A DNA stretch of 64,000 nucleotides from Candidatus Levyibacteriota bacterium (GCA_036788695.1 DAIQMY010000002.1:66394-130393); one strand, 5' to 3'. Shown: positions 9,086 through 61,742, counted from the first letter of the stretch. The notes: generated by a model not told the origin, from the letters alone. A program made the numbers and translations.

Positions 9086-9831
9086 CACGTTTTAATTACG
9101 AAAACCAAGAATATCTAAATAAGTTGGAAAAGTTAAGTGCAAGTTATTACGCTAAGTATATTTCAACAATAAGTAAATTTTTGCCAGACAAAAATGGGTT
9201 ATTTTTAGAGGTAGGATGTGGAAATGGATTAGTACTTTCAATCCTTAAAAAAAAAGGATACACAAAGTGTTATGGGGTAGACATATCTAAGTTATTTATT
9301 CATGAAGCAAAACAGAAGAAGATACCACATGTATATTCATATGATGGTGTAAGCTTGCCGTTTAAAGATGGTTATTTCGACCTCATAAGCTCTTTTAACG
9401 TTCTTGAGCACACTGAAGATCCTTCACGTTATTTAAAAGAACAGATTAAAAAAGTAAAAAAAGAAGGAATAATTATTGTAGGCTGTCCCAATTTTTTATC
9501 AATATTTTCATTTGGTAATCACCCACAGCTAAAAGGCTTTTTCCGAAAAGTTATAAACACAATAACGGTTTTTAAAAAGCTAACAGAAAATAGAAACGGA
9601 ACGTTTCATAAAATGGAACCTATTATTCGTACTCCATTTCAGTATGATGATGATGCTATTGTTGTAACAAATTTAATTGATCTAAAAAGTTTTTTTAAAA
9701 AGAATAAATGTGAAGTGCTGTATGAGACAGGATTTTTACACTATGATGCAAAAATCTATAATCTTATAAACAGTATTCCTTTTTTTAGATACTTAATGCC
9801 TTCCTGTTTTATAATTGTTCAAAAAAAATGA
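9082..9831 (+). CDS. Class I SAM-dependent methyltransferase
   Basis: LEVGCGNGLVLSILKK is motif I (GxGxG). DLISSFNVLEH is motif II/III. The start overlaps the upstream stop as ATGA. Confidence 0.55.
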   Translation: MTRFNYENQEYLNKLEKLSASYYAKYISTISKFLPDKNGLFLEVGCGNGLVLSILKKKGYTKCYGVDISKLFIHEAKQKKIPHVYSYDGVSLPFKDGYFDLISSFNVLEHTEDPSRYLKEQIKKVKKEGIIIVGCPNFLSIFSFGNHPQLKGFFRKVINTITVFKKLTENRNGTFHKMEPIIRTPFQYDDDAIVVTNLIDLKSFFKKNKCEVLYETGFLHYDAKIYNLINSIPFFRYLMPSCFIIVQKK

Positions 9832-11858
9832 AAAATATATATCAGTTACTTGTTTTTTTAGTACTCATTTTCTTAACGTATGGTGCTTGGTTTATTCCTG
9901 GTCTTATCACGTCTGGTGACTTTTGGTATTTTTATCCTTCAATGTATGGGCAATTTGACGTAGCTTTCTTTGCATGGAATTGGGAAAAGGGAAACGGTTT
10001 AGGAATGAATTCTGTCGTGTTTCAGGCGGTACTCTTGGATTTTGGGTTGCCTATTACACTTTTAGGTAGTATTTGTAAGTTTTCCTGGCAAATCATAGAA
10101 CGTTTTGGATTTTTTTATCCGTTTTTAATAATTGGTGGAGTGGGTTCATACATGCTTCATAAAAATATCTTTAAAGATAGTACATTTTGGGTTGTTTCGG
10201 CGGTGGTGCTTCTATTGAATACGTACATACTTACAGTGGTCGGAGGCGGACAAATCTTAATAGGTATCGCATACACTTTTTCAGCAATTGTTTTATCAGA
10301 ATTTATGAAAAGTATTCATGATGATAAAAACTATTCTCGATTGATTTACATAAGAAACAGTATTGTTTTAGGGGTGTTATTTGGGATTGAGGTTTTGTTG
10401 GATTTAAGGATAGCCTATATATTAGCTATTGCCATCTTTTTGTATTTTCTTGTTTACACTACCTTCTCTATCGCAAAAAACAATATTTTTAATTTGATAA
10501 AAAAACTATTTTTCTCATTTGTATTTCCTTTTTTGCTTGCCTTTACACTAAATGGATTTTGGTCTTTGTCTCTTGTTGTAAACAGACGTAATCCCTTGCA
10601 GGCATTGGGGTCGGCATATAGTGATGTCGCGTCAGTGAAATTCTTTAGTTTTGCAACTCTTGAAAACTCAATCTCCCTGTTGCATCCAAATTGGCCAGAG
10701 AATTTATTTGGGAAAGTCTCATTTATGAGGCCAGAATTTATTATTATTCCTCTTATTGCTTTTTTAGGGCTGCTATTACTTGGGAAGGTGCAGAATAAGA
10801 AGTTGGCACAGTTAATTGTTTTTTTCTCTATTCTGGGCTTAGTAGGAGCATTTTTGGCAAAAGGGGCAAATGAGCCGTTTGGGGGAGTGTATCTTTTTCT
10901 TTTTGAGCATGTGCCAGGTATGGTAATGTTTAGAGACCCAACTAAATTCTATATGCTCGTTGCCCTTTCTTTTTCGATACTTATTCCGTTTACGATGTAC
11001 CAAATAAGTGAAATATTTAAAAAAATAAAATATTTGCCCTTGATTTTCCTTACTATCTTCATCTTTTTCTGGTTAGTTACTATACGCGAGGCTATCTTTC
11101 ATCAACTTGGAGGTACTTTTAAACATACAAAAATTCCCAATGAATATGTGCGGCTAGAGGCTTTTTTAAGAAGTGATAAAGAGTTCTCAAGAACATTCTG
11201 GATTCCTCAAGTACAGCGATTTGGCTATTATTCTCCAACCCACCCGCCAATGGTTGCTGAAGATTTTTTACAAGTCTACTCCTATGATAGGCTTGCAAAA
11301 AAGATAATAGATTTGAAGACACAAAAAACACTTGAGAATATGTCTGTTAAATATATAATTATCCCGTATGATTCCGAAGGGGAAATATTTTTAGATGACA
11401 GAAGGTATAGTTCAAAGTTATACGAAAATTTGATACATAAAATAGATACCTACAGTGGGTTAAAGAAAATACAGTCGTTTTCGCAAATACAAATATATGA
11501 ACTATCAAACCCTAAACCTCATTTTTGGAGTAAACGGGGAATAATTAAAAATTATTCGCGTGTTTCAGCAGTAAAATATAGAGTAAATCTTGTGAATGCA
11601 AAAAAAGGAGATCGTATTGTTTTTTCAGAAGGTTATGATCCAGGGTGGAAGGGAAATATTATAGATGAGGAATTAAATCCTGTTTTATTTTCTGTCCCAT
11701 ATGAAAAACATATCAATAGCTTTATGATAAATCGCAATGGTACATATACAGTAGAAGTGTATTATGCAAACCAAATATGGGTAAACATAGGAATCGTAGT
11801 AAGCGTTGTATCGCTTATTTTTTCAGTTGTGTTTATTATAGTTACTTATAAAAAATGA
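9828..11858 (+). CDS. Large polytopic membrane protein with C-terminal exported domain; GT-C/YfhO-like glycosyltransferase candidate
   Basis: About 14 hydrophobic helices followed by a soluble region of ~230 aa. Same architecture as 5770..8061. Confidence 0.35.
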   Translation: MKNIYQLLVFLVLIFLTYGAWFIPGLITSGDFWYFYPSMYGQFDVAFFAWNWEKGNGLGMNSVVFQAVLLDFGLPITLLGSICKFSWQIIERFGFFYPFLIIGGVGSYMLHKNIFKDSTFWVVSAVVLLLNTYILTVVGGGQILIGIAYTFSAIVLSEFMKSIHDDKNYSRLIYIRNSIVLGVLFGIEVLLDLRIAYILAIAIFLYFLVYTTFSIAKNNIFNLIKKLFFSFVFPFLLAFTLNGFWSLSLVVNRRNPLQALGSAYSDVASVKFFSFATLENSISLLHPNWPENLFGKVSFMRPEFIIIPLIAFLGLLLLGKVQNKKLAQLIVFFSILGLVGAFLAKGANEPFGGVYLFLFEHVPGMVMFRDPTKFYMLVALSFSILIPFTMYQISEIFKKIKYLPLIFLTIFIFFWLVTIREAIFHQLGGTFKHTKIPNEYVRLEAFLRSDKEFSRTFWIPQVQRFGYYSPTHPPMVAEDFLQVYSYDRLAKKIIDLKTQKTLENMSVKYIIIPYDSEGEIFLDDRRYSSKLYENLIHKIDTYSGLKKIQSFSQIQIYELSNPKPHFWSKRGIIKNYSRVSAVKYRVNLVNAKKGDRIVFSEGYDPGWKGNIIDEELNPVLFSVPYEKHINSFMINRNGTYTVEVYYANQIWVNIGIVVSVVSLIFSVVFIIVTYKK

Positions 11859-12100: not shown

Positions 12101-13115
12101 AGTATTAGTTACTGGTGCTGCGGGCTTTATGGGAAGCCATTTAGTGGATGCCTTATTGGATTTAGGTCATGAGGTATATTCTCTGGATGACCTTTCATGG
12201 GGATACAAAGAAAATGTAAATCCAAAAAGTACTTTTATGCAACTCGACTTGCAAGATAAGGCAAAAACAGAAAAGTATATAACTGAAATAAAACCAGAAT
12301 ATGTATTTCACCTGGCAGCGGATGCAACTGAGGGAAGAAGTCAATTCACCCCTATTAATTCAACGCAAAGAAATTATGGAGCATATCTTAATTTGCTTGT
12401 TCCAAGTATAAAAAATGGGATGAAAAAAATGATTTTAACTTCATCTATGAGCGTTTATGGTGCACAAAAGCCCCCTTTCTCCGAGGACATGGAAAGACGG
12501 CCTGAGGATATTTATGCAATCTCTAAATCTGCAATGGAACATGCAACTGAAATATTGTCTAAGGTGTTTAAATTTGAATACACAATAATTCGTCCCCATA
12601 ACGTATATGGTCCTAGGCAAAATTTGGCAGATCCCTATAGAAATGTTATCGCAATTTTTATAAATAGACTTTTACAAAATAAAAACTTTTTTATCTACGG
12701 AGATGGAAATCAGAAGCGGGCATTTTCATATATTGATGATTTTACGCCATACATTATAAAAGCAGGATTTGAGGACCTAGCAAACAGTCAGATATTTAAT
12801 ATTGGTCCGGTTGAGGAATGCACGATTAATGAATTAGGAGAGATAGTCTTGGACGTATTTTTTAATGGGGATGTACCTGAGAATATGCTTCCACAGCACT
12901 TGCCTCCACGCCCCTTAGAAGTATCTGATGCATGGTGTACAGCTGAAAAGGCAGAAAAAATATTAGGGTATAAGACTACGATAAACCTTAAAGATGGAAT
13001 TCATAAGATGGTTGAATGGGCACGATCAGTAGGTCCAATGCCATTTAAGTATTTGGATAACTTGGAGCTTGTTTCTGACACGACACCTACTACCTGGAAA
13101 GACAAACTGCTTTAA
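12093..13115 (+). CDS. NAD-dependent sugar-nucleotide epimerase/dehydratase (SDR; UXS/GalE-like)
   Basis: VLVTGAAGFMGSHLVDALLDLGHEV is the Rossmann motif. YAISKSAME is the YxxxK catalytic motif. Confidence 0.75.
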   Translation: MNKVLVTGAAGFMGSHLVDALLDLGHEVYSLDDLSWGYKENVNPKSTFMQLDLQDKAKTEKYITEIKPEYVFHLAADATEGRSQFTPINSTQRNYGAYLNLLVPSIKNGMKKMILTSSMSVYGAQKPPFSEDMERRPEDIYAISKSAMEHATEILSKVFKFEYTIIRPHNVYGPRQNLADPYRNVIAIFINRLLQNKNFFIYGDGNQKRAFSYIDDFTPYIIKAGFEDLANSQIFNIGPVEECTINELGEIVLDVFFNGDVPENMLPQHLPPRPLEVSDAWCTAEKAEKILGYKTTINLKDGIHKMVEWARSVGPMPFKYLDNLELVSDTTPTTWKDKLL

Positions 13116-16376: not shown

Positions 16377-19300
16377 CAATAAAAATAATTTTTTAGAAGG
16401 TAAGTTACTGTTTTTTTTAGTTGCAGTTCTTATAGTATTTATTCCTTTGTATCCGAAGCTTCCTGCAATCGGAGTAAATAATACATGGGTGTATATACGG
16501 CTTGAAGATTTTTTAATCGCATTTACAACTTTTGTCTTTTTGATACAGTTGTTGAGGAGACGGGTTCATGTAAGTCGCCCCCTTGGGATACCAATAGTTG
16601 CATACTGGATTGCGGGATTTCTATCTCTTTTAATTAGCATAGTATTTCTTGCTCCTCATCTTGCAAATTTTTTCCCTCATGTCGCGATTTTATCTTATTT
16701 GAGGCGCATCGAGTACATGGTGCTTTTCTTTGTAGGGTATGCTGTTATAAAAGAAGAAAAGGATATCAGGCGGTTGTTTTGGGTTTTGGCTGTGACCACG
16801 GGAGTAGCTTTTATATATGGAATTGGTCAAAGATATTATATAAATGTATGGGCAGCTTTTCCTGATTTCTTTGAGAAATACTCATTTTGTTTTCCTTCGT
16901 TTCAAACAACAAATGAAGAGTTCGCAAAAGGTATTCCTCTGTGTTTGCCTTCAGATGGGAGAATAACTTCTTTATTTGGAGGTCATTACGACCTCTCTGC
17001 ATATCTTGTATTGGTAATACCAATTATTTTCTCAGTTGCTTTTGCAATGAGAAAGAGACTGTATCAAATTTTATTACTCCTGTTGGGTACTGGGCTTGTA
17101 TACCTGCTCATTTTAACGGCATCCAGGATTTCGTTTGGTGCGTATATAGTAGGCATTATCTTTGCACTCGTGTTTATTAGAAAAAAAATGATTATTATCC
17201 CTATACTTATTATTTCTTTATTTTTTCTTGTAACATCAAGCTCAAGTGTATTGCAACGTTTTACACAAACCTTCAGATTCACAAATCTAGTAATAAACAG
17301 CCAGGGTCAGGTGGTCGGTGAGGCTGTTAATAAATTGCCTGAGCAGCTAAAGAAAAAAATCTCACATGAGCCAATTATCGTAGAGGCGCCACCCCCAACA
17401 CAGGAGTTGCCTACGGGTTCAAGCTATATAGCACTTCCTGGAAAGACTGAGTCAACATCATCAGCTGTGTTAAAATCGTCACCAAAATTATCAAAAGAGG
17501 AAAAAAGCAAATATAAATTTGGTGCAGTTGAGATCTCAAACGTTCAGGGTAACTTCTTGATCCAGAGAGCACTTGTATATGATATTTCTTTTACAACCAG
17601 ATTTCAGGGAGAATGGCCAAATACATGGAGAGCATTTATGAGGAATCCTATATTTGGAAGTGGATATGCAACTATTACTTTGTCCTCAGATAATAGTTTC
17701 CTAAGAGCCCTGGGAGAGGTTGGGGTATTAGGATTTATCACGTTTTTTTCATTTTTTATTCTTTGGTACATCTATGTTAAAAATAACTATAAAGAGGCAG
17801 ACAGGTTTACAAGAAATTTCGTTCTTGGTCTTTCGGCTGGAGTAATTGGGCTTTTTCTAAACGCTGTGCTTATTGATGTTTTTGAGGCATCAAAAGTTGC
17901 AGAGTCTATGTGGCTTCTTTTAGGTATAGGAGCGGGTGGAATCGCCTTATATGCGAAAAACAAATTTTCATATCTTCATGAGTTAAGAAATATACTTTCC
18001 TCAAGTCTATTTTTAATGATTTACTTATTAATTTTGTTTTTTGTGTTCTTAGGCTCATCATTTAATAATTTTTTTGTTGGAGACGATTTTACATGGCTAA
18101 GATGGGCAGCTCAATCAGACAATACAACATTAGTTAAAAACTTTTACGATGCACAGGGATTTTTCTTGAGACCTATAGATAAGCTGCTCATCTTTGTGCA
18201 ATATACACTTTTTAATTTAAAACCTTTGCCTCATCATTTATTCACTCTTTTTTATAATTTTGGTGTTAGTATTGTGGTATATTTTCTGCTTTTTAGAATA
18301 TTTAAAAAGAAAAGTACTGCGTTTTTGGGAGCATTTATTTTTTCCTTTATCCCTTCACATTCGCAAAATTTGTTTTGGATTGCAACTATTTCAACGACCG
18401 TTTCTACTTTTTTTGTTTTGTTAGGACTTTTCTTTTATTCAATAGCTCGTAAGTCTCAGAAAATACTTTACTATATTTGCGCATTTATATTATTCTTGTT
18501 AGCAATTTTTTCATATGAAAATGCCATCATCTTTATTGGTCTCATGGTTGTTTTTGATATGTTTATTGCAAATCACAGTGGAAAACGTCAGAAGATGCAG
18601 ATATTTTTACCATATCTTTTTGCAGTAGTAATAGTAGGTTTTTACTTACTAGTTCGAATAAACGCGCATGCTGCAGGTTTTTCGGGAGATTATAATTACA
18701 ATTTATTAAAGCTAATTCCAAACACTATTGGTAATTATTTGGGGTACATTGCTTTGTTTTTTGGAAGCGAATCTACTTTATCTTCTTATACTTATCTAAG
18801 AAATATTATGAAGCAATATGTATTAGTACTTAGCTTTATAGGATTTATGTTTATCGCGTTTGTTGCGGGTTTTGTTATTGAGCACAAAGAGAGGTTTTCT
18901 GTTTCAAATCGTAAGAAAATATTTATTTTTGGTTTTATTTTTTCTATTGTTGCCTTACTGCCATATTTGCCTTTAGGTAATATTACCTTGAGATACCTTT
19001 ACCTTCCATCATTTGGCTTTGTTGTGATGGTTATTACTATTTTTGATTTTTTGTTTTCAAAAATCACAGTAAAGAAATGGTTTGCTCTAGTTTACAGCTT
19101 AGTAATTATCATGCTTGGACTCATGTTTTATGTTGGCCTAACGCGGGCAGAGCGTTATTGGGATGAAGCCTCAAAGATCACCTATGACACGTTAGTAAGA
19201 TTTAGATTAGATTATGATCTTAAAAATAATACGAATCTTTATTTCTACAATGTTCCGATTAGAAATGGTGAGGCGTATATATTTCCAGTAGGACTTGCTG

Positions 19301-51525: not shown

Positions 51526-52674
51526 ATGTTCATCAGACCACAAACAGCTTCATTTGCAAAAATTAGAGTAATAGGTATAGGTGGAGGTGGCGGAAATGTT
51601 GTCAATTCCATGATTCGTGAATCCCAGATAAAAGGGGTAGACTTTATTGCTATAAATACAGATGGTCAGGCACTTCTTAACTCACAAGCATCAGCAAAAA
51701 TTCAGATAGGGGAGAACTTAACGAAAGGATTAGGGTCAGGAGGAAATCCTGAAATCGGTGAAAAATCTGCTCTTGAGTCCCGCGATAAAGTAAAAGAGTT
51801 ATTGGAGGGAACGGATATGGTGTTTATCACAGCAGGTATGGGAGGCGGAACAGGAACCGGGGCTGCCCCAGTTATTGCTGAAGTTGCAAAAGAGGTAGGA
51901 GCTTTAACTGTTGCGGTAGTGACTAAGCCGTTTACGTTTGAGGGTACCAGGCGAGCTGTTGCAGCAGATGAGGGGATAGAACAGCTAAAGGATAAAGTAG
52001 ACACACTTATTGTAATCCCCAACCAGAGAATCTTAGAAGTAGTAGATAAAAAGCTTTCTCTTTTGGAGGCGTTTAAAATTGCTGATTCCGTTCTGAATCA
52101 TGGCGTGCAGGGAATTTCAGATTTGATAACTATTCCTGGATTGGTGAATGTAGACTTTGCTGATGTGAAGTCTATCATGAGTGATGCAGGATCAGCACTT
52201 ATGGGAATAGGGATAGGAGTTGGAGAGAATAGAGCTCAGCATGCGGCACGTCAGGCTATCTCATCTCCGCTTTTGGAGGTATCCATGGAAGGAGCACGCG
52301 GAGTACTCTTTAACATTATAGGTGGACTTGATATAACCATGTCTGAAGTTGACGAGGCTTCAAAGATCATAACGGCAGCAGCTGATCCGGATGCGAATAT
52401 TATATTTGGTGCTACAATTGATGAAACTATGCATGATCAGATAAAGATTACGGTTATTGCAACAGGATTTGATGAGTCCAGACGAAGGCTTAGAGAGTTT
52501 GCACAATCATCAGGAGTTCCATTTCAAGCACCTTCATATGAGGAAAAAAAGCAGGAGCAGGTAACCGTAACGTCTTCGCAAAGCACACAGCAAGAAGTAG
52601 CTCAAGAGAAGAAGAAAGAGGAAGAAGGAGAGGACTTTTTTGACATCCCCGCCTTCCTAAGACAGAGGAATTAA
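51526..52674 (+). CDS. ftsZ: Cell division GTPase FtsZ
   Basis: [35 protein letters not shown] (tubulin signature), C-terminal tail [10 protein letters not shown]. Confidence 0.9.
52647..52664 (+). repeat. Direct repeat copy 1 (CCCCGCCTTCCTAAGACA), within the ftsZ 3' end that encodes the PAFLRQ tail
   Basis: Exact 18-mer repeated at 53066-53083. A diverged copy lies at 61600-61617. Confidence 0.8.
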
Positions 52675-52676
52675 AA

Positions 52677-53063
52677 ATGAGGAGAGAAAGATTAATATCA
52701 AGTTTGCCTGTAAATCTTGCTACCAGAATTGACGCAGGGTTAACATTGGGTAGAGTTATCAAGGAGTCAAGAAATAACCCAAATGTTAAAGGAGTAGAAA
52801 TACACATAGGAGAAGTTGAAAACCTCGTGCATCTTGCAATAAAAGGACAAGGAAACATGTGTGATGTTTCTAAAGCAGCTCTTGTTCAAAATGAGGGATC
52901 TGACGAAATTACTAATAAATACGGAGAATCGAATCTAATTGTTTCTCATTCCACTGACTTGTCAAGCAGTCGGGAGTTATCTGATATAGGTCCTTACAAA
53001 GACACCTCCGGTAGCGATTTATTTGGTAATCAAATTGTCGGTGTTTGGAAACCTCGTAGATAA
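52677..53063 (+). CDS. Hypothetical 128-aa protein in a ~0.4 kb cassette flanked by perfect 18-bp direct repeats
   Basis: ORF starts 3 nt after the ftsZ stop. No recognisable motif. Confidence 0.4.
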   Translation: MRRERLISSLPVNLATRIDAGLTLGRVIKESRNNPNVKGVEIHIGEVENLVHLAIKGQGNMCDVSKAALVQNEGSDEITNKYGESNLIVSHSTDLSSSRELSDIGPYKDTSGSDLFGNQIVGVWKPRR

Positions 53064-53065
53064 AA

Positions 53066-53083
53066 CCCCGCCTTCCTAAGACA
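53066..53083 (+). repeat. Direct repeat copy 2. In frame it reads N-P-A-F-L-R-Q-R-N-stop, just after the stop of the 128-aa ORF.
   Basis: Identical 18-mer. Regenerates an ftsZ-tail-like coding end. Confidence 0.8.
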
Positions 53084-53089
53084 ACGAAA

Positions 53090-53584
53090 CTAACTTTTGC
53101 CTATCTTTTTTAAAACTTCTCCCATTTTTTTTCCAAAGTCGCTGGAGTTGACGATATAATCATGAAACATTTGTTTGAATTCAGTTAATACTTTATCTCT
53201 GTCATTTGGTTGAGAGTTAGCTATGGTTACAGCTAACTGATATAACAGAATTGGGGAGATATCAAGCCACTTACCGTTAATTCTAAGGAAGATTAAGATG
53301 GTCATTACAGCAATTCTTTTGTTCCCATTTGCGAAAGGGTGATTTTTTATCAATGAATAAAACAAAGCTGCAGTTAGGTCAACTAATGTTGGATTATCTG
53401 TATTATGAAATGTATTTTTAGGAGAAGCCAAGGATGATTCTAGCAAGGGAATATCCCGTGTTGAATAGTCAGGAATTGGCTCGCCGAACGACATAAGTTC
53501 TCTAGCGAGGTTGAAGCAGATAAACTCAAAATCTTCTACGTTTAACCACTTAGGCTGCAGCAAGTCTTCGGAATGTTTCCTCAT
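53090..53584 (-). CDS. doc: Fic/Doc-family toxin (death-on-curing type)
   Basis: HPFANGNKRIAV matches the Fic/Doc motif HPFx[DE]GN[GK]R. Size ~160 aa. Confidence 0.7.
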   Translation of the reverse strand: MRKHSEDLLQPKWLNVEDFEFICFNLARELMSFGEPIPDYSTRDIPLLESSLASPKNTFHNTDNPTLVDLTAALFYSLIKNHPFANGNKRIAVMTILIFLRINGKWLDISPILLYQLAVTIANSQPNDRDKVLTEFKQMFHDYIVNSSDFGKKMGEVLKKIGKS

Positions 53585-53675
53585 ATTGTTTTACACCTTT
53601 GCTTACTGCCTTTTTAATTATTTTAGCTTTCTTAGGGTTATTTTTTTCGTATTTTTTGATTTGAGAATTTGTCAT
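53550..53675 (-). CDS. Possible 41-aa lysine-rich upstream partner ORF overlapping the doc start (antitoxin candidate)
   Basis: ATG at 53675. Translation MTNSQIKKYEKNNPKKAKIIKKAVSKGVKQYEETFRRLAAA. Overlaps doc by ~35 nt as in phd-doc pairs. Too short to assign. Confidence 0.2.
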   Translation of the reverse strand: MTNSQIKKYEKNNPKKAKIIKKAVSKGVKQYEETFRRLAAA

Positions 53676-53736
53676 GAATTTATTATAACACAATAGTTAT
53701 ATTACACAGCAATTATATGTTGCGCGACATGAAGGT

Positions 53737-54099
53737 TTATGGACGCTCATTGAATCTTTGAGTAATGATTGTATGGTCTGCTCTTAAAAGAGATAAAACA
53801 TAGCATTTAGTTTTTTTGTTCTTAGCTGTAAAAGTTATGATTTCTCTTTCAACTTCTTGAAAGAAAGGCCAGTGAAATCCCTTTGCATCAGCTGTAAGTA
53901 TGAGTGAACCAGTTAAAATAGCAGTAGCACAAATAAACTTGTCCCCATGATCTATAGAGTTCACATCTACATTTTCTAATTTCATGATGTTGTCAAGTTG
54001 AGCAGCAGCTACTAAAACTTCTACGGATAAAAAGTAACGAAAGTAAGGGTTTAATAGTTCTAGCATTCTTTTTTCCTTATCTTGTTTGTTGCCCCTCAA
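53737..54099 (-). pseudogene. PIN-domain-like remnant (C-terminal half only)
   Basis: FICATAILTGSLILTADAKGF resembles the last PIN strand/helix (IAATAL..LVTRN..DF). The upstream reading frame is open but has no start codon before a stop at 54172, so the N-terminal part is missing. Confidence 0.3.
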
Positions 54100-54379
54100 G
54101 AGTTCAAGTCCGTGTTGAAAGGGGATGGTGGAAAATACTTTCTCAATTAAAAACTGATACAGGGAAGGGCTTTAAAGAGCTTATAGAGGATGCTTTAGTT
54201 AACACCTATTGCATAGGAAAAAATGGAAAACCTGAAAAAGTTTCAAATCACCAGCGACAAGCGAAAAATACTGTTCTCGCGAGGAACTGAAACATAGAGT
54301 AGCTTGTGGTTTGAGAGTAGGGATTAGGTTTTCTTAATCTCTACAAATTAGGCCTTATAGCTTTGTCATCAAGACGTAT

Positions 54380-55129
54380 TTGAGGTATACTACGGGAGTG
54401 AAAAACGAAGCCTCGACATATTTTTTCATTGGTAGAATTTCTGACTTTTCTGCCGAGTATCAAGTGCAAAATAAATTTATCGATGGCAATTACGTGTTTG
54501 AGTTATTTATGAGTGGTATTTCTATATGGGGGAAATCAGATAAACCCTTTGAAGAAGTCCGCTCTGAAATTATACAAATGCTAGACACAATCTTTGGTTT
54601 ATTTACTCTTTCTACAAATAAACCTCTTATTTATACACTTGAGCACTGGGTGGAGACAAAGGAAAATGTTGCTACGAAAAATATAATTGGTTGGTTCAAG
54701 CCTACTAATAACCCCGTTAGAGTTCGTTCAATGAGAAGCCCTATTAACACAGCTTGGAAAAATTCTGTTAAGTACTGTAGAAAGGTATTGAGCTCTAACC
54801 CAAACTATAGCCTTGCATTACAGGACTATCATAAGTCAATTATAGATACGGGTGATGAGGCTTTCTTTTATGCGTATAGAGCTGTAGAAGATATTTGCAG
54901 GGCTGTATCTGGAATGGACGATACAAAAGAGAGTGCATGGGATAAAATGCATAAGGATTTAGGAACTACTAAGGAGCAGTTAGACTCATTATTGAAGGTT
55001 GCTGAAGAAATAAGGCATGGTAAGAAAAATACGCAAAAAATTAAAGATGCAAGAACAAAAAGAGCAGAGTTATTAGGTGCCTCAAAGCAGATAGTTGAAA
55101 TTGCTTTTAATAAACATATATTTATGTAG
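54380..55129 (+). CDS. Hypothetical protein (249 aa) inside the island
   Basis: Clean ORF, no recognisable motif. Confidence 0.35.
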   Translation: MRYTTGVKNEASTYFFIGRISDFSAEYQVQNKFIDGNYVFELFMSGISIWGKSDKPFEEVRSEIIQMLDTIFGLFTLSTNKPLIYTLEHWVETKENVATKNIIGWFKPTNNPVRVRSMRSPINTAWKNSVKYCRKVLSSNPNYSLALQDYHKSIIDTGDEAFFYAYRAVEDICRAVSGMDDTKESAWDKMHKDLGTTKEQLDSLLKVAEEIRHGKKNTQKIKDARTKRAELLGASKQIVEIAFNKHIFM

Positions 55130-55200
55130 TTTTTAGTACTTCATTTGTTTCAAGGTGATGTTGTCTTTTCAAGAGAGTGGAATAAGAGCTATAAGATTGA

Positions 55201-55896
55201 TTAACTCCACAACGAATAAGATATGTCTCTAAATTTAATCTTTATATCCGGTTTTTCATCCGCCCAGGCTTTAAGATAAACCCTTCTTCTGAAGGATGGG
55301 TCTATTCGTTGTGCAAAAATTACTTCGTTTTGGAGTTTTACTTGCATAAAGTTGTCTTTGTTGATAGTGACATGAAACGTTCTTAATCCAGGGTTATCTG
55401 ACTTAACAGAGCTAAAATCGGGGTTTCCAAGGTCAAAATTGTCATAGTACTTCCATACAGGTAGCAAGTTTCCTTTCTTTTCATATTCGCTTCCAGTGTG
55501 AATTGTTATGCCTTTTTTTGCGTCTACAATTTCATTAGCTCTTAATCTTTCATTTCCGATTACAAATCCTGCTCGTCAAAACTCAGGTTGCCCTTTTAAT
55601 GTGATAGAAAAAGTTAAAGATTTTATATAACGACCCTTCAAGTCTAAAGACAACACGTCTTGTTTCTGTGGCCATTCTTCACGTTCTCTACAATGAGCTA
55701 TCCAGTTTTCAGGAGACATTTTACTCAAATAGCCTTTTATTGTTTCCCATGCCTGATTTAGTAAATCTGATATCTGTTTACCGAAAACAACTTTTATAAA
55801 AAAAACAATTATTAGTAACGAGATTACATGGACATAAATGTTTATTGCTGGAATTTCTATTGACTGAAGTGAGACTTTGATTGTTTGAGTATTCAT
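55201..55896 (-). pseudogene. Membrane-anchored protein gene interrupted by a single in-frame TGA (at 55576-55578)
   Basis: ORFs 55576..55896 and 55201..55467 are in the same frame. The 36 codons between them are open (…KGQPEF*RAGFVIGNERLRANEIVDAKKGITIHTGSEYEKKGN-LPVWKYY…). TGA is clearly a stop elsewhere in this window. Confidence 0.35.
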
Positions 55897-56026
55897 AAAT
55901 CCATCATATTATATCAGTATAGAACAAAAATAAATTACCAGTTATGGTTGAAATGTGCCTACATATAATAATCATGCGACATAAAACTGCTACATATTGT
56001 TGACATTTAAAAGTGAATGATAAATA

Positions 56027-56218
56027 ATGATAAATATGACCAATATGAAAGTTGAAGAGTATTACTCTTTAGATGAGGTCGCAAAATTGCTAAAAGTTGC
56101 ATATCTTACAGTTTATCGTTGGGTACAAACTAAAAAGCTCACTGCTCTTAAGGCTGGTAAGCAATATAGGATTAAAAAGGAAGACTTAGACTCTTTTTTG
56201 AAAAATTATAAAGAATAA
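56027..56218 (+). CDS. Excisionase/MerR-superfamily helix-turn-helix DNA-binding protein
   Basis: YSLDEVAKLLKVAYLTVYRWVQTKKLTALKAGKQYRIKKEDLDSFL matches the HTH_17 excisionase-type pattern. Confidence 0.5.
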   Translation: MINMTNMKVEEYYSLDEVAKLLKVAYLTVYRWVQTKKLTALKAGKQYRIKKEDLDSFLKNYKE

Positions 56219-56223
56219 TTACT

Positions 56224-58077
56224 ATGAAAGACCCAATTGATAAAATAAATAAAAAAGCTACTCCTAACTTAAAGGAACTCCTGAAAAGTGACGCACCTTA
56301 CATCGTAGAAGACGGTAAGGTAAATCTAGAAAAGCTGAAGGGCTTGCTTGCAGGAGAAACGACCGAAAAGGAAGACGATAGGTTTTATTTTAACTGGGCT
56401 GGTAAAGACAAAGTGTTTCAAGCTATCCAAGCCCCTGCCTATTCAACCCTAGTACCTCAAAAAAATAAGTCCATCGGATGGGATGAGACTGAAAATCTAA
56501 TGATAGTTGGAGAAAACTTAGAAACTCTTAAGCTACTCCTAAAACCTTACTTTGGTAAAGTTAAGGTTATATACGTAGACCCACCTTACAATACTGGGAA
56601 TGATTTTATTTATAAAGACAATTTTTCATTACCACTAAAGGAATACTTTGAGAGAACTGGTCAAAAAGATGGAAATGGTAGTCGTATGACAACTAATTCA
56701 GAAGCAAATGGTCGGTTTCATTCTGATTGGTTAAATTTTATGTTCACACGTCTATTTTTAGCACGAAATTTACTAACAGACGATGGTATTATTTACATTT
56801 CTATAGACGATAAGGAAGTACATCATTTAAGGATGTTAATGGATGAGGTATTTGGCGAGGATAATTTTCTAACAATGTTCTTGTGGAAGAGTAGGCAGAC
56901 GACGGATAGCAGGAAAGACACACACACTTCAACAGACCACGAATATATAATTTCATACTGTAAAAATATAAGCAACTTTAGTGCAAAAGGCAGTCCAATA
57001 GATGTTACAAAGTATTCAAATCCCGATAATGACCCCAGAGGGGATTGGGCAAGTATTGACTTGTCTGTTCAGGCTACAAAAGACCAGCGTCCAAACCAAT
57101 TTTACGATATAGTTGACCCTAACACTGGAAACAAATATCCAGCTAACCCCAATAGAGTATGGTCAAAATCTAGGGCAGTTGTAGAGCAAATGATAAAGGA
57201 GAAGAGAATTTTATTTCCTGAAAGTGGTAATGGTCGCCCAAGAGAGAAAAAGTTTATTGCAGACTTAAAATCAGGTATTACTGGTTTTTCCTCATGGTTA
57301 GATAGTACAAAAGTTGGGTATACAACAAATGGAACTAGAGAGCTATCTGAGTTGTTTGAAGGTAGAATTTTTGATTTTCCAAAGCCAACAAGTTTATTAA
57401 AAACCATATTTAATCAGTCTCTAGGTAAAGACGATTTGATTATGGATTTTTTTGCTGGTTCGGGTTCCACGGGTCATGCGGTCGCACAGCTCAATAAAGA
57501 AGATGGAGGGAATAGAAAGTTTATTTTAGTTCAGATACCCGAACCAACAGACGAAATAAGTGAAGCATTTAGAGCCGGTTATAAATCCATTTCAGATGTA
57601 TGTATTGAACGACTTAAACGAGTATCTAAAAAAGTTGAAAATAGTCTAAAATTCAAGGTATTTAGTCTTTCTTCTTCAAATTTTAATCTTAAAGATGAGT
57701 TTGAATTAGCTGAAAATAAAGACCTTGGAGAGCTTAAGAATACCTATCTAAAGGAGCTAGGACTGTATGTAGACCAACCAACCGTAATAGCAGCCAACAC
57801 TTTGGATATCGTCTATGAAATAATTCTAAAAAATGGTTTTTCTCTTAATTCCAAAATTGATGAGCTAAAGCTAGGTTCCAACAATTTCTATAAGGTAACG
57901 GATGCGGAGAATGAACTAGAGATACACGTATCCCTTGACTCCAAAATTGAGGATGTGTCGGTGGAAGTTATACGTACTACAGAGTATAAGGGTAAGACGT
58001 TTGTCTTTTATGATAATGCCCTTACTGATAGCCAAAAGATAAATCTAAATACCTTTGTGAAATTGCAGGTAATTTAA
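56224..58077 (+). CDS. mod: Type III restriction-modification methyltransferase (Mod), N6-adenine, beta class
   Basis: VIYVDPPYNTGNDFIYKDNF (motif IV DPPY) precedes DFFAGSGSTGHAV (motif I FxGxG). The central region is variable, as expected for a target-recognition domain. Confidence 0.8.
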   Translation: MKDPIDKINKKATPNLKELLKSDAPYIVEDGKVNLEKLKGLLAGETTEKEDDRFYFNWAGKDKVFQAIQAPAYSTLVPQKNKSIGWDETENLMIVGENLETLKLLLKPYFGKVKVIYVDPPYNTGNDFIYKDNFSLPLKEYFERTGQKDGNGSRMTTNSEANGRFHSDWLNFMFTRLFLARNLLTDDGIIYISIDDKEVHHLRMLMDEVFGEDNFLTMFLWKSRQTTDSRKDTHTSTDHEYIISYCKNISNFSAKGSPIDVTKYSNPDNDPRGDWASIDLSVQATKDQRPNQFYDIVDPNTGNKYPANPNRVWSKSRAVVEQMIKEKRILFPESGNGRPREKKFIADLKSGITGFSSWLDSTKVGYTTNGTRELSELFEGRIFDFPKPTSLLKTIFNQSLGKDDLIMDFFAGSGSTGHAVAQLNKEDGGNRKFILVQIPEPTDEISEAFRAGYKSISDVCIERLKRVSKKVENSLKFKVFSLSSSNFNLKDEFELAENKDLGELKNTYLKELGLYVDQPTVIAANTLDIVYEIILKNGFSLNSKIDELKLGSNNFYKVTDAENELEIHVSLDSKIEDVSVEVIRTTEYKGKTFVFYDNALTDSQKINLNTFVKLQVI

Positions 58078-58080
58078 CTC

Positions 58081-60684
58081 ATGCTAAAGCTAAAGTTTAA
58101 TCCCAACCTAGACTACCAGCAGGACGCGATAAAAGCGGTAACAGATATTTTTGAAGGGCAGGTAAAGACAGAGAAGAAGCATATTTTCCAAGTTATACCC
58201 AACAAGCTCACTTTAGAAAAAGACATGCTCTTGGCAAACCTCCAGACTGTACAGGAAAACAATAATCTAAAAAAAAGTCAAGATTTTACTACACCTCTTA
58301 ACATAACTCTAGAGATGGAAACGGGTACCGGTAAAACCTATGTCTACCTACGCTCTATTTTAGAGTTATATCAAAAATACGGATTTTCTAAGTATATTAT
58401 CGTCGTTCCAACCGTAGCAATTAAAGAGGGTGTATTGAAGTCGTTGAGTATCACCAAAGACCATTTTAAAGGTCTGTATAACAATCTGTCCTACGAGTAT
58501 TACGAGTACGTATCTACTAAGCTAATAACAGTTCGAATGTTTGCACAATCCTCACATCTACAAATAATGATTATTACCAAGGATGCATTTAATAAAGATA
58601 AAAATATCATCCATAACAGCCACGACCGCATGGGAGATAAGCCAATTTCTCTTATTCAGAAAACCAACCCCATTGTTATCTTGGACGAACCACAAAAGAT
58701 GGGTGGAGAGGCAACTCAGTGGGGCATAAAAGAGCTAAATCCTCTCATTGTGCTTAGATATTCTGCAACACATAGGGATATTGAAAATTTGGTTTACAAG
58801 CTTACTCCATTTGATGCCTATGCGAAAGGTTTAGTTAAAAAAATTGAGCTAGCAACTGTTGTGGAGGAGAGTGACCCAAATACAAAAAAAATAATTCTGG
58901 AAAACATATATTCCTCTGGAGTTAGTCTTAAAGCAAAGTTAAAAGTGTTTATTAAACAAGCAGCATCCGTGCAACTTAAAACCATTACTGTAGGTTCTGG
59001 GGATAATTTAGCAACTAAGTCTAAAAACCCTTACTATGATGGGTTTATCGTCTCCGAAATTAATCTAGGTAATAGCTACATACTCTTTTCAAATGGACTA
59101 AAGGTATTCGTGGGACAGTCGTCCGTAAACGAGGACGAAATAGTACGGATGATGGTGCGAGAAATAGTCTTAGAGCATTTGGAAAAAAAGCGAAAGTTTA
59201 ATCCTTTGGGGATTAAGACCCTTTCCCTTTTCTTTATCCACCGTGTAGATGATTACCTGCCTGTAGATGGGTGGCTACGCAAGATGTTTGAAGAAGAATA
59301 CCTGAAGGCTACAAATTCAAATTACCAAGAGTTTAAGACCACTCGACCAGACAGGGTACACTCTGGGTACTTCTCGGAGATGAAAAAAACCTCCTCAATT
59401 GAAAATGACGAAAAAGCTTATGAACTGATTATGAAAGACAAGGAAAAATTACTATCCTTAGATAATCCCGTGGAGTTTATTTTTTCACATTCTGCCCTGC
59501 GTGAAGGATGGGACAATCCCAATATCTTTAACATCTGTACCTTGGCATATTCAACTTCTGATATTAAAAAAAGACAGGAAATTGGACGAGGTTTACGCCT
59601 GGTGGTAAATCAACAGGGAGACCGCATATACGACCGAGATATAAACATCCTTACAGTCGTTACTAATGAGAGTTATCAGAATTACGTATCAGAATTACAG
59701 ACTGAGTTTAGGGATGATGCAGGAGAAAGTGCTCCGCCGATAGAACACAAGAAAAAACGAGTGAGTTTAGCCTTAAAAGATGATGCAGTAGCTAATAAGA
59801 GCTTTTTGAGCCTTTGGCAGCTGTTAGCAAGGCGAGCTAAGTTTGTCGTTTCCATGCAGGAAGAGGAAATAGTAAGCAAGTGTATAGACGAGATTAACAA
59901 AATTGACGAAAGCAGTATACGTGAGATACGGGTACGCATTACTAAAACTGGAATAGACACCCTTTTACTGGATGACATTAGAGGAAATATAGTTAGTGAC
60001 CGAAGCTATGAAACCGGAAATGCTAAACACTTACCAAACATTATTATGCTTCTCCAGGCTGATACAAAATTAACCAAGAAAACTTTGTTAGCAATACTGC
60101 AAAGAGTAAGTAATTTTGACCTGTTTTTTAAAAACTCTTATCAGTACTCAAGTCTCGTTTCTTCTGCCATAAAAACCGTTACATCAGACTTAGCATCTAA
60201 GGATATTAGTTATTTAGAGATTAACGACGATTATGGATTGTCGCTTTTTAATAAAGAAGTCCAAACTTACGAAAAATACTTAGTAAAGTTGGAGAACGCT
60301 AAAACCCTTTATAAAACTAATAACAACGGACAAATAGACGCAGTGATAATTGACCCTAGTCCATCTGCAGAAGGTGTATCACAACCAGAAAAAAAGTTTG
60401 CTGAGCAGGCAGACCGTAACGATACTGTCAAGTTTTTCTTTAAGCTTCCAGATACCTATTCTATAGAAACTCCTGCAGGGAAATATACGCCAGACTGGGC
60501 GTTAGTTGTAGAAAATAGTGATAAAGCTCAAGTTTATTTTGTTGCGGAAACTAAGGATACTAACAACATTAGTAGCCTCCGCCAAGAAGAGCAGATAAAA
60601 ATTCTTTCTGCACGAGCTATGTTTAAAAAAATTATGCCAGAGGTTATTTTCAAGGCTCCTGTAAGCGAATTTAGTGATTTATAG
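58081..60684 (+). CDS. res: Type III restriction enzyme Res subunit (SF2 helicase plus C-terminal PD-(D/E)xK nuclease)
   Basis: LEMETGTGKTYV is the Walker A. ILDEPQKM is motif II. C-terminal YTPDWALVVEN...FVAETKD is the PD...ExK nuclease motif. Immediately follows mod. Confidence 0.8.
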   Translation: MLKLKFNPNLDYQQDAIKAVTDIFEGQVKTEKKHIFQVIPNKLTLEKDMLLANLQTVQENNNLKKSQDFTTPLNITLEMETGTGKTYVYLRSILELYQKYGFSKYIIVVPTVAIKEGVLKSLSITKDHFKGLYNNLSYEYYEYVSTKLITVRMFAQSSHLQIMIITKDAFNKDKNIIHNSHDRMGDKPISLIQKTNPIVILDEPQKMGGEATQWGIKELNPLIVLRYSATHRDIENLVYKLTPFDAYAKGLVKKIELATVVEESDPNTKKIILENIYSSGVSLKAKLKVFIKQAASVQLKTITVGSGDNLATKSKNPYYDGFIVSEINLGNSYILFSNGLKVFVGQSSVNEDEIVRMMVREIVLEHLEKKRKFNPLGIKTLSLFFIHRVDDYLPVDGWLRKMFEEEYLKATNSNYQEFKTTRPDRVHSGYFSEMKKTSSIENDEKAYELIMKDKEKLLSLDNPVEFIFSHSALREGWDNPNIFNICTLAYSTSDIKKRQEIGRGLRLVVNQQGDRIYDRDINILTVVTNESYQNYVSELQTEFRDDAGESAPPIEHKKKRVSLALKDDAVANKSFLSLWQLLARRAKFVVSMQEEEIVSKCIDEINKIDESSIREIRVRITKTGIDTLLLDDIRGNIVSDRSYETGNAKHLPNIIMLLQADTKLTKKTLLAILQRVSNFDLFFKNSYQYSSLVSSAIKTVTSDLASKDISYLEINDDYGLSLFNKEVQTYEKYLVKLENAKTLYKTNNNGQIDAVIIDPSPSAEGVSQPEKKFAEQADRNDTVKFFFKLPDTYSIETPAGKYTPDWALVVENSDKAQVYFVAETKDTNNISSLRQEEQIKILSARAMFKKIMPEVIFKAPVSEFSDL

Positions 60685-60689
60685 CATTT

Positions 60690-61418
60690 ATGAACAAATT
60701 TAAGACGTCGGCAATAACAATTCTGACTGAGGCAGGCAATCCTTTGCACTATAAGGAAATTACTCGTCTTGCCCTGGACAAAGGTATTTTAGAGACTGAG
60801 GGTGCTACTCCAGATGCTTCTATGAATGCTCAGATAGTAATGGAAATTAAGAACAAAGGGAAACTATCAGATTTTATTAGAACTGCACCTTCTACTTATG
60901 CCCTTAACCCTGACAAGTCAAAGGTAACAACAGAATTAGAAGAGGAAGAGCTATTGGAAGAAAAGTTAGTAGTCGGTAGTGGCTACATCGGTAAAGCTGG
61001 CGAGTTTTTAGTCTGTAGCGAATTACTATTCAGAGGCTATAACGCTAGTATTATGAGTGTGGATACAGGTGTAGACATAGTTGCTACAAAGGAAAATCGC
61101 CTTTATGGTGTACAGGTTAAGACAGCTAGATTAAATGACTATAACACCTACGTATTTGACGTTCGAAGAGTATCTTTTGATAGACATAATAATGGTAATA
61201 CTTTTTATATTTTTGTACTTTACAGTGAGAAAAAAACCAACTTTCTTATTCTTCCTTATTTTGAGATTGAAAAAAAAGTTCATGATGGAGCTGTTTTGGA
61301 AGTTGGACATGGGTTGCGTTACCGAATAAATATAAAGTTAAGAAATAATAATGTGTATCTTGGCACTCTAGACCACGAAATGAATTACTTCTTGAACAAT
61401 TGGTCTGTTCTTAAGTAA
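60690..61418 (+). CDS. HARE-HTH (winged-helix) N-terminal domain fused to a PD-(D/E)xK / Hjc-like nuclease domain. R-M-associated accessory nuclease candidate.
   Basis: N-terminus ITILTEAGNPLHYKEITRLALDKGIL...GATPDASMNAQI resembles the HARE-HTH of RpoE-delta, Mrr and HB1. C-terminus GEFLVCSELLFRGYNA...VDTGVDIVA...LYGVQVKTA carries an E...D...(Q/E)xK pattern. Confidence 0.45.
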   Translation: MNKFKTSAITILTEAGNPLHYKEITRLALDKGILETEGATPDASMNAQIVMEIKNKGKLSDFIRTAPSTYALNPDKSKVTTELEEEELLEEKLVVGSGYIGKAGEFLVCSELLFRGYNASIMSVDTGVDIVATKENRLYGVQVKTARLNDYNTYVFDVRRVSFDRHNNGNTFYIFVLYSEKKTNFLILPYFEIEKKVHDGAVLEVGHGLRYRINIKLRNNNVYLGTLDHEMNYFLNNWSVLK

Positions 61419-61599
61419 CAAAACAACTTTAACATCTGATTCAAATTCTTATTTGTAAAAACTCCAGGGCTAGATAAAGATTCTTCTTGACCCTCTGATT
61501 AAAAAAGTTTATATTCAATGGGAAGACATAGAAATCCCTTTTAATTAACGGTGTTTAGTAAAAGAGATTGAAGCTAAGAGCGGGTTATGTCTATAAAAT

Positions 61600-61617
61600 C
61601 CCCGCCTTCCTTGGGCA
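61600..61617 (+). repeat. Direct repeat copy 3 (CCCCGCCTTCCTtgGgCA, diverged). In frame it reads K-I-P-A-F-L-G-Q-R-N-stop.
   Basis: 12 identical nt plus similar flanks. About 27 of 33 nt match the ftsZ terminal codons. Confidence 0.6.
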
Positions 61618-61742
61618 GAGAAATTAAAGTAACCAGTTTTATTGAGAGAAGAATTTAATCAGCTCACCTGGTTTTTCCTGCAGATTTAGATTTAAATTAT
61701 TTTTGTTGAAATTTAATTTTTTTGAGAGTAAAATTCACCCGT

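Follow-up and report, generated by a model that had tools for sequence, protein, structure and literature searches.

A HARE-HTH/PD-(D/E)xK nuclease gene at the end of a type III restriction-modification operon in a Levyibacteriota bacterium, and its linkage to restriction-modification systems of all types

A stretch of 64,000 nucleotides (nt) from a Candidatus Levyibacteriota bacterium (GCA_036788695.1 DAIQMY010000002.1:66394-130393), referred to here as the window, carries a type III restriction-modification (R-M) gene pair, mod and res, that is preceded by a gene for a small helix-turn-helix (HTH) protein and followed by a gene for a protein of 242 amino acids (aa) in which a HARE-HTH winged helix is joined to a PD-(D/E)xK nuclease. 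This last gene, the HARE nuclease gene, and the company it keeps in other genomes are the main subject of this report. The genes of the locus are the following:

56027-56218, + strand: HTH_17 leader gene, 63 aa as listed
56224-58077, + strand: mod, 617 aa, full length, beta-class type III methyltransferase
58081-60684, + strand: res, 867 aa, type III, superfamily 2 (SF2) helicase plus a C-terminal PD..ETK endonuclease domain
60690-61418, + strand: HARE nuclease gene, 242 aa, HARE-HTH plus PD-(D/E)xK

All four open reading frames (ORFs) are co-directional and are separated by 5, 3 and 5 nt, and the locus is one tightly packed operon. Given the strong domain matches and the length of the ORFs, the four-gene set is not due to chance. 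A first-pass annotation had placed the four ORFs at these coordinates, with which our ORF calls agree exactly. It had read them as an excisionase-like HTH gene, a beta-class mod, an intact res adjoining it and, close to res, a gene for a HARE-HTH protein with an Hjc-like nuclease; each of these readings is borne out by the matches described below.

The product of the HARE nuclease gene falls into three parts:

60699-60905, + strand: HARE-HTH winged-helix domain, aa 4-72, Pfam PF05066
60921-60986, + strand: acidic linker predicted to be disordered, aa 78-99, contains TELEEEELLEEK, predicted local distance difference test score (pLDDT) below 50
60987-61415, + strand: PD-(D/E)xK nuclease domain, aa 100-242, PDDEXK_5 and Foldseek

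HARE-HTH is known from human ASXL proteins and from the delta subunit of Gram-positive RNA polymerase, in both of which it is the part that binds DNA, and its DNA target is disputed. In the 242-aa protein it is matched with an E value of 1.7e-14 (54.4 bits against a gathering score of 25.9), while PDDEXK_5 is matched over residues 100-192 with an E value of 2e-6 (28.3 bits against a gathering score of 26.1). An AlphaFold2 model built from 25 homologues (mean pLDDT 80) folds the HARE domain into three helices (residues 3-15, 21-30 and 41-59) and two strands (62-66 and 69-72) with a pLDDT of about 80-90. An alpha/beta nuclease core follows after the disordered linker, which is also the most variable part of the family alignment. 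When compared with the PDB by Foldseek, the model finds I-Ssp6803I (1.4e-4), the nuclease domain of SPARDA (1.9e-4) and several archaeal Hjc resolvases (6e-4 to 1e-3). A sequence profile search of the PDB gave only a non-significant match to an Hje resolvase (E 0.7), in which the E, D and (E/Q)xK positions align. In PHROGs the nuclease half matches just a family of unknown function, and neither PADLOC nor NCBIfam holds a model for the protein.

The PD-(D/E)xK fold foreseen by the first-pass annotation is thus detected, both by the Pfam family and by the structural model, although the details of the active site have to be corrected. The nuclease motifs are GKAGE (101-105), VDTGVD (124-129) and QVK (142-144), with E105, D125 or D129, and Q142-V-K144 as the candidate catalytic residues. 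The site therefore reads E..D..QxK, with a glutamine in place of the usual glutamate, as in Mrr, and not ExK. Among 91 distinct homologues spanning 27-88 % identity, all 91 are identical at K102, G104, E105, N118, D125, G127, D129, A132, Q142, V143 and K144. Such invariance implies that the catalytic site is under strong purifying selection, which makes a purely regulatory role of the protein unlikely.

The position of the gene behind R-M genes recurs in homologous loci. In 69 non-redundant loci, the gene upstream of the HARE gene lies on the same strand at a distance of no more than 300 nt; the gaps have a median of 5 nt, with 46 loci at 10 nt or less and 13 overlaps. According to Pfam, these immediate neighbours comprise 16 ResIII proteins (12-13 type I HsdR and 3 type III Res), 8 N6_Mtase/Eco57I proteins, 7 HsdS, 3 D12 methyltransferases and 2 AlwI, and the 95 proteins encoded two or three genes upstream are mainly Eco57I/N6_Mtase, HsdS, HsdR, MmeI, N6_N4 and D12. 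Upstream sequence of 1 kb or more is available for 71 non-redundant loci, and in 54 of these (about 76 %) the co-directional operon with the HARE gene at its end contains recognizable R-M genes: 23 of type I, 14 of type IIG/IIL or partial, 8 of type II, 4 of type III and 5 others. Typical arrangements are hsdM-hsdS-hsdR-HARE; an N6_Mtase/Eco57I gene and an S-like gene, then HARE with a 4-nt overlap; a PLD-SNF2 helicase and an MmeI-like methyltransferase, then HARE; or an EcoRI-methylase, GmrSD/HNH and Trypsin_2, then HARE. Whatever the type of R-M system, the gene almost always stands last or late in the co-directional operon.

The linkage to R-M systems that the first-pass annotation had expected in homologous contexts is accordingly found, but it is a linkage to amino-methyltransferase R-M systems of all types and not to type III in particular. 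Every partner methyltransferase identified belongs to an amino-methyltransferase family, and no C5 family appears in the top lists. Upstream partners turn over much faster than the HARE nuclease gene: a homologous gene in the adjacent upstream position is common to only 22 of 145 pairs of HARE proteins with at least 80 % identity. The HARE sequence does not co-vary with the type of partner, and the genes downstream of it are highly variable. Since the nuclease sequence does not follow the specificity of its partner, the protein would recognize something independent of the partner's target site.

The family is large and sporadically distributed. A protein identical to that of the window is on record from a Candidatus Levybacteria assembly. 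There are 927 matching proteins, the best 120 of which are all about 240-250 aa long and 63-91 % identical; an alignment of 25 members has a mean column identity of 77 %, and an exhaustive search of 50 %-identity representatives yielded 540 clusters at E<=1e-10. In a collection of one genome per species, covering 185,579 species, at least 116 relatives were found (80 loci were kept); this is a minimum, since the scan relied on two strict peptide patterns. The carriers are mostly bacteria of the Candidate Phyla Radiation (CPR; Patescibacteria), with others in Bacteroidota, Omnitrophota and further phyla. Across CPR bacteria and Bacteroidota the HARE protein stays about 50-90 % identical while the partner genes change. 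Cultured carriers exist among the Bacteroidota (Chitinophaga dinghuensis, Deminuibacter soli, Aquimarina litoralis, Tenacibaculum halocynthiae and a Maribacter), which makes the question of function directly testable; in A. litoralis JCM 15974, for instance, the gene belongs to an hsdMSR-...-HARE locus.

The idea of a phage or plasmid gene is rejected, as tblastn found no match to the HARE nuclease in INPHARED and PLSDB, and IMG/VR holds just 2 close relatives in 2.9 million contigs. The identity of 63-91 % across CPR phyla might suggest a housekeeping gene that lies beside R-M genes by chance. This idea is rejected because of the sporadic distribution and the defence or mobile contexts; the variable downstream neighbours and the tight upstream coupling also speak against it.

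The mod-res pair of the window is an ordinary, if divergent, type III system. In Mod, DPPY (aa 119-122) lies ahead of FAGSG (aa 410-414), the order of the beta class; the protein matches Pfam N6_N4_Mtase (E 2.3e-32) and PADLOC MTase_III (2.2e-169), the latter over positions 18-611 of a 621-position profile. Res displays GTGKT (82-86), DEPQ (202-205), REGWD and QEIGR, followed by PDW (804-806) and ETK (823-825), and matches Pfam ResIII (E 3.4e-12), RE_endonuc (E 1.9e-28, aa 767-861) and PADLOC REase_III (2.2e-217). The pair thus resembles canonical type III systems of the EcoP15I/EcoP1I type in having mod before res in one operon, a beta-class N6_N4 Mod, and a Res with SF2 helicase motifs and a C-terminal PD..ExK. 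It departs from them in that the EcoP15I C-terminal domain is not detectable in Mod by a Pfam scan and that Res falls short of the PRK15483 equivalog cutoff of NCBIfam (326.7 bits against 564, E 3e-97), and is therefore a divergent member rather than an EcoP15I/StyLTI equivalog. The operon moreover contains two additional genes, the HTH_17 leader and the HARE nuclease gene. We infer that Res and the nuclease cooperate functionally.

The leader protein matches Pfam HTH_17 (E 3.4e-14), the 'excise' domain of the NCBIfam excisionase family (TIGR01764, 1.6e-16) and the PHROG 'excisionase and transcriptional regulator' (5.6e-10). By Pfam it is of the HTH_17 (MerR/excisionase) type and not HTH_3 as in Xre-type C proteins. 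It also misses the MAD1 equivalog cutoff of NCBIfam (52.6 bits against 80); PADLOC reports a mad1-like similarity for the HTH protein and no other component of MADS, and membership in that system is not indicated. A candidate promoter lies at its start:

56000-56028, + strand: promoter-like site TTGACA-17-AATAAT, consensus match 11/12, the best of the region

This site is a consensus match only, and the total number of such sites does not exceed the shuffled expectation. As it overlaps the first listed ATG of the HTH ORF, the real start may be an internal methionine, probably M4 at 56036 or M7 at 56045, with possibly a very short leader. Homologous HTH_17 genes encode 55-62 aa.

The two additional genes of the operon form part of a larger pattern. 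In the closest relatives of the HARE protein (79-88 % identical), the gene order is a protein of about 380 aa, HTH_17, a variable cargo, HARE and, with its start overlapping the HARE stop by 4 nt, a large serine recombinase. The cargo differs between the homologous loci (designated by L numbers where they have to be told apart): it is missing in L104, where HTH_17 lies 2 nt from HARE, and consists of two D12 methyltransferases and a 490-aa protein in L106, a 379-aa protein and a Dam-family methyltransferase in L007, a 1086-aa type IIG enzyme in L015, and an Eco57I-type methyltransferase with an S-like protein in L017, its place being taken by the type III mod-res pair in the window. The HTH_17 gene of the window is 71-78 % identical at the nucleotide level to the HTH_17 leaders of L104, L106, L007, L015 and L017, and the homology breaks off precisely at the stop codon of HTH_17 and at the start codon of HARE. 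The recurring frame and the similarity of the HTH_17 genes imply that leader and trailer have been co-inherited around an exchangeable R-M cargo. At these cargo junctions no conserved recombination site or sequence was seen. The large serine recombinase adjoins HARE in L007, L015, L049, L104, L105 and L106; among 109 loci it was detected in 21 and HTH_17 in 14, and both are uncommon outside the clade of at least 79 % identity.

The first-pass annotation had suggested that the four genes may be a composite defence module rather than a plain type III system. This proposal is supported by the co-inheritance of HTH_17 and HARE around R-M cargo in the closest relatives; the module is not specific to type III. 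Because the bracketing genes travel with a large serine recombinase and the set lies in a putative mobile island (see below), part of the composite may belong to a mobile-element backbone and not to defence. It is conceivable, if quite doubtful, that HTH_17 and HARE, together with the overlapping recombinase and the protein of about 380 aa, constitute an exchange platform on small integrative elements of CPR bacteria, with a slot that accepts complete R-M systems of any type and with HARE as a universal partner or a cargo-exchange enzyme. As a universal, specificity-independent partner, the HARE nuclease would turn any amino-methyltransferase R-M system into a two-layer system.

Some further features of these loci may be mentioned. 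The protein of about 380 aa, which has no Pfam or PHROG match, lies directly upstream of HTH_17 in L104 (3-1007), L015 (5388-6551), L106 (3158-4288) and L080 (13813-14994); the window does not encode it. In L007, a 31-nt repeat corresponding to the 5' end of the recombinase gene (MKAII.ARV) occurs on both sides of HARE (7959-7989 and 8719-8749), with a third copy at 16509-16539; it looks as if HARE had been inserted at the start of the recombinase gene, or as if a recombination scar had been left there. Besides this duplication, no convincing attachment-site-like repeats were seen around the recombinase-bearing relatives. L015 carries at least six tandem 21-nt repeats (12679-12846) about 500 nt downstream of the serine recombinase. 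L105 contains repeats resembling the 3' halves of tRNAs (3285-3339, 9123-9177 and 10327-10381), one of which follows the HARE-recombinase pair on the downstream side after about 700 nt and could be the trace of an attachment site. L049, from Magasanikbacteria (278-2781 and 9694-10941), comprises an HsdS-like fragment, HTH_17, HARE and a serine recombinase, with no cargo between HTH_17 and HARE; its ftsZ gene is about 7 kb away, the 3' end pointing toward the element.

In the window, the operon is situated downstream of ftsZ, within a region bounded by direct repeats:

52645-52675, + strand: direct repeat copy 1, last codons and stop of ftsZ (51526-52674), proposed left boundary
53064-53094, + strand: direct repeat copy 2, 81 % identical to copy 1
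61598-61628, + strand: direct repeat copy 3, 87 % identical, would encode IPAFLGQRN*, 180 nt after HARE, proposed right boundary
52676-61628, no strand: putative integrated island of about 8.9 kb between the outer repeat copies

The repeats are 31 nt long, and some similarity runs for about 40 nt past copies 1 and 3. No further copy of the repeat core within 3 mismatches was found in the window, nor in 100 shuffles, and in 54 other ftsZ loci the 3' end of the respective ftsZ gene is not repeated within 10 kb. Besides the HTH-mod-res-HARE operon, the island contains a Fic/DOC gene, an ORF of 128 aa and four further ORFs that are small or unknown. No ORF between 52676 and 61628 encodes a recombinase, and neither blastn nor tblastx reveals similarity to a recombinase remnant between the HARE stop and copy 3. 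In 80 related loci no homologues of the island-flanking ORFs occur near ftsZ; the closest FtsZ relatives in the metagenome collection are just about 70 % identical and share none of the flanking ORFs, so that an empty site could not be demonstrated.

The island gives the impression of a site-specific insertion at the ftsZ 3' end, or of two in tandem, with a recombinase that was lost or never present. The repeats are there to be seen, and they suggest that the whole operon set is the cargo of a mobile island. Islands of the staphylococcal cassette chromosome (SCC) type offer a precedent: large serine recombinases integrate them at the 3' end of a conserved gene, and flanking direct repeats, recombinase-less pseudo-elements and R-M cargo are all known among them. 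The Levyibacteriota island resembles them, as far as can be judged from sequence, in its three tandemly arranged direct repeats copying the 3' end of a conserved gene (ftsZ), in its R-M cargo, and in lacking a recombinase while relatives possess a large serine recombinase. Conserved brackets with swapped R-M cargo and an island at the end of ftsZ bear on how defence systems are exchanged in CPR bacteria with reduced genomes. The Fic/DOC protein of the island (53090-53584, - strand) is supported by Pfam (2e-13) and has weak matches to the PADLOC candidate systems PDC-S23/S05; the adjacent ORF of 120 aa (53737-54099, - strand) and another of 249 aa (54380-55129) have no family match.

Several known systems combine R-M genes with a second effector. 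Examples are PrrC in the type I locus EcoprrI, mrr and mcrBC beside hsdRMS in E. coli K-12, and BrxU with BREX. The HARE nuclease may be analogous to these in that a second effector, encoded with or near an R-M system, would supply a second layer of defence. PrrC, an anticodon RNase, requires its specific R-M partner, whereas the HARE nuclease is indifferent to the type of its partner.

The fusion of HARE-HTH with a restriction endonuclease (REase) domain beside modification systems is an already established concept of comparative genomics. Such HARE-HTH/REase-fold fusions were described by Aravind & Iyer (2012), according to the account of that work in PMC4738411, and Dnd-associated and BREX-associated 'backup' effectors with HARE-HTH/REase are also on record (PMC10853773, PMC12839542). 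The protein of the window shares with them the N-terminal HARE-HTH, the C-terminal PD-(D/E)xK domain, the place directly downstream of DNA-modification genes and the association with methyltransferases of the N6-adenine (N6A) type. Its subfamily differs in having a PDDEXK_5/Hjc-like core with a QxK motif, in being 50-90 % identical across CPR bacteria and Bacteroidota, in trailing all types of R-M system and, in one clade, in being framed by HTH_17 and a large serine recombinase. In the accessible literature we did not find the cross-phylum conservation of the PDDEXK_5-type QxK subfamily, figures on its indifference to R-M type, the HTH_17/HARE/recombinase frame or the island at the end of ftsZ.

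Two other groups of enzymes invite comparison. Like DpnI, the HhiV4I-type winged-helix type IV enzymes (PMC11037411) and Mrr, the HARE nuclease would combine a winged-helix reader with a small nuclease and no NTPase, and with Mrr (PD-QxK) it also shares the QxK catalytic motif. The domain order is opposite to that of DpnI, and the HARE winged helix has an extra helix (PMC11037411). The winged-helix type IV enzymes mostly have no neighbouring methyltransferase, in contrast to the HARE family with its co-operonic methyltransferase or R-M genes in about 76 % of loci. I-Ssp6803I and the archaeal Hjc proteins are the best structural matches of the nuclease domain, the former belonging to the same Pfam family PDDEXK_5. 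Unlike I-Ssp6803I, the HARE nuclease is associated neither with an intron or intein (no Rfam match between 50000 and 64000) nor with a fixed target gene or conserved flanks; unlike both, it possesses an additional winged helix and, unlike a housekeeping resolvase, it is sporadic in occurrence.

How can these observations be accounted for? The HARE nuclease gene probably encodes an add-on nuclease of general use. In the most economical reading, which in our opinion has an even chance of being correct, this is a modification-discriminating backup, a portable second layer independent of specificity that mobile islands would carry and express together with amino-methyltransferase R-M systems. The gene would be co-transcribed, and often translationally coupled, with the R-M genes, and the HTH_17 protein would most likely control transcription of the operon. 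The HARE domain would bind DNA and discriminate its state independently of the recognition sequence of the partner, the likeliest such state being a base modification through which foreign DNA evades classical restriction, as in a type IV-like backup. The Hjc/I-Ssp6803I-like domain, probably as an oligomer, would then cut. Next to a co-operonic methyltransferase, a general m6A-dependent cutter would be self-toxic, and the HARE nuclease therefore cannot be one. Backup functions, or the discrimination of modifications, have been proposed for the HARE-HTH/REase fusions that accompany Dnd, BREX and N6A R-M systems (PMC4738411, PMC10853773, PMC12839542).

A number of points weigh against this reading. 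The score of PDDEXK_5 barely exceeds its gathering score, and PADLOC has no model for the 242-aa protein. HARE-HTH/REase proteins are computational predictions, and to our knowledge there is no experiment on any of them. The 4-nt overlap of the HARE gene with the recombinase start in the closest relatives, and its place in L104 between HTH_17 and the recombinase with no R-M gene in between, fit a role in a mobile element. Winged-helix fusion type IV enzymes, moreover, have no methyltransferase within three genes in 87 % of cases (PMC11037411), so that the HARE family, next to methyltransferase or R-M genes as often as it is, behaves differently from them.

The points from the recombinase loci lead to an alternative in which HTH_17 (as directionality factor or regulator), HARE and the large serine recombinase are the frame of integrative elements, R-M systems being exchangeable cargo and the nuclease serving recombination, homing-type cleavage or cargo exchange. 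Besides the 4-nt overlap, this would explain why the frame recurs with differing cargo, or with none, in L104, L106, L007, L015 and L017, and why homology of the HTH_17 genes stops at the ORF borders; the ftsZ 3'-end repeats around the window copy, the L007 repeat on both sides of HARE, and the fact that the nearest solved structure is a homing endonuclease are in keeping with it. We nevertheless consider it unlikely, although worth keeping in view, since outside the clade of at least 79 % identity most loci have R-M genes and neither serine recombinase nor HTH_17, the downstream genes are highly variable, the cargo junctions have no conserved recombination site and the island of the window is without any recombinase. 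The variety of contexts could also mean that the HARE nuclease, perhaps as a classical type IV enzyme, works on its own, gathers in defence islands and is uncoupled from the adjacent R-M system. Family members do occur without recognizable R-M genes or with other defence genes (L076, L029, L074, L078, L094, L059 and L042), and the lack of co-variation with partner type is as expected for an independent neighbour. Yet clustering in defence islands alone would not give the precision seen in the 69 loci, with the same strand, a median gap of 5 nt, frequent 4-nt overlaps and a consistent position at the 3' end of the operon, and an uncoupled neighbour is distinctly unlikely.

It is improbable that HARE senses N6-methyladenine or its absence regardless of sequence context, making the nuclease a generic extra restriction subunit for any amino-methyltransferase system, kept away from self DNA by the mark of whichever such enzyme is encoded upstream. 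All the partner methyltransferases identified are indeed of the amino type, and HARE-HTH has been proposed as a reader linked to N6-methyladenine (PMC4738411; discussed in PMC11037411). On the other hand, HARE-HTH has been summarized as more likely a sensor of cytosine modification (PMC11037411), and partners of types I, III and IIG have a nuclease of their own. R-M sites occur, as estimated from site length, about once per kb or less, and a 242-aa protein without ATPase has no obvious way to sense an absence. Highly improbable, finally, is a non-catalytic regulator, analogous to a controller protein, or a housekeeping Holliday-junction resolvase. A winged helix could act as a repressor, some members are annotated 'Holliday junction resolvase' by JGI and the fold resembles Hjc; but the catalytic motif is invariant in all 91 homologues, which argues against a regulator, and the sporadic distribution and variable synteny are at odds with a resolvase.

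Two more specific candidates were rejected. A homing endonuclease within an intron or intein, or with a fixed target site, does not agree with the absence of any Rfam family between 50000 and 64000, the absence of tRNA matches and the variable neighbours on both sides. For a housekeeping Hjc, lineage-wide presence and a stable context would be expected; the at least 116 relatives in 185,579 species lie in defence or mobile contexts. The isolation typical of a stand-alone type IV enzyme is not observed, R-M genes including methyltransferases being present in the upstream operon of 54 of the 71 loci. The family represents a compact and highly conserved bacterial HARE nuclease whose genetic context points to self/non-self discrimination. 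As a candidate accessory gene of R-M systems it is missing from PADLOC, and should it function alongside R-M systems of whatever type, it would provide restriction with a general second layer.

A minority of loci show other neighbours, namely SMODS (L076), reverse transcriptases (L029, L074, L078 and L094), KilA-N (L059), unknown genes and housekeeping genes (L042). The RVT_1 genes adjoin the HARE nuclease gene in L078 (10735-12993), L074 (6769-9030), L029 (6801-8303) and L094 (8108-9418); a Cas4-like PDDEXK_1 partner is present in two of these loci, and in one the reverse transcriptase is fused to HSDR_N. DUF2779 proteins of about 470-540 aa recur a few genes from HARE, often directly downstream (L050, L071, L031, L057 and L072), and one lies upstream of HARE in L016 (the context of protein P0016). 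The family also includes nuclease-only forms of about 155 aa, such as P0135, P0142 and P0143, and the distant relatives P0134 (748 aa), P0162 (974 aa) and P0163 (1127 aa) contain 6-9 tandem HARE-HTH-like stretches per polypeptide.

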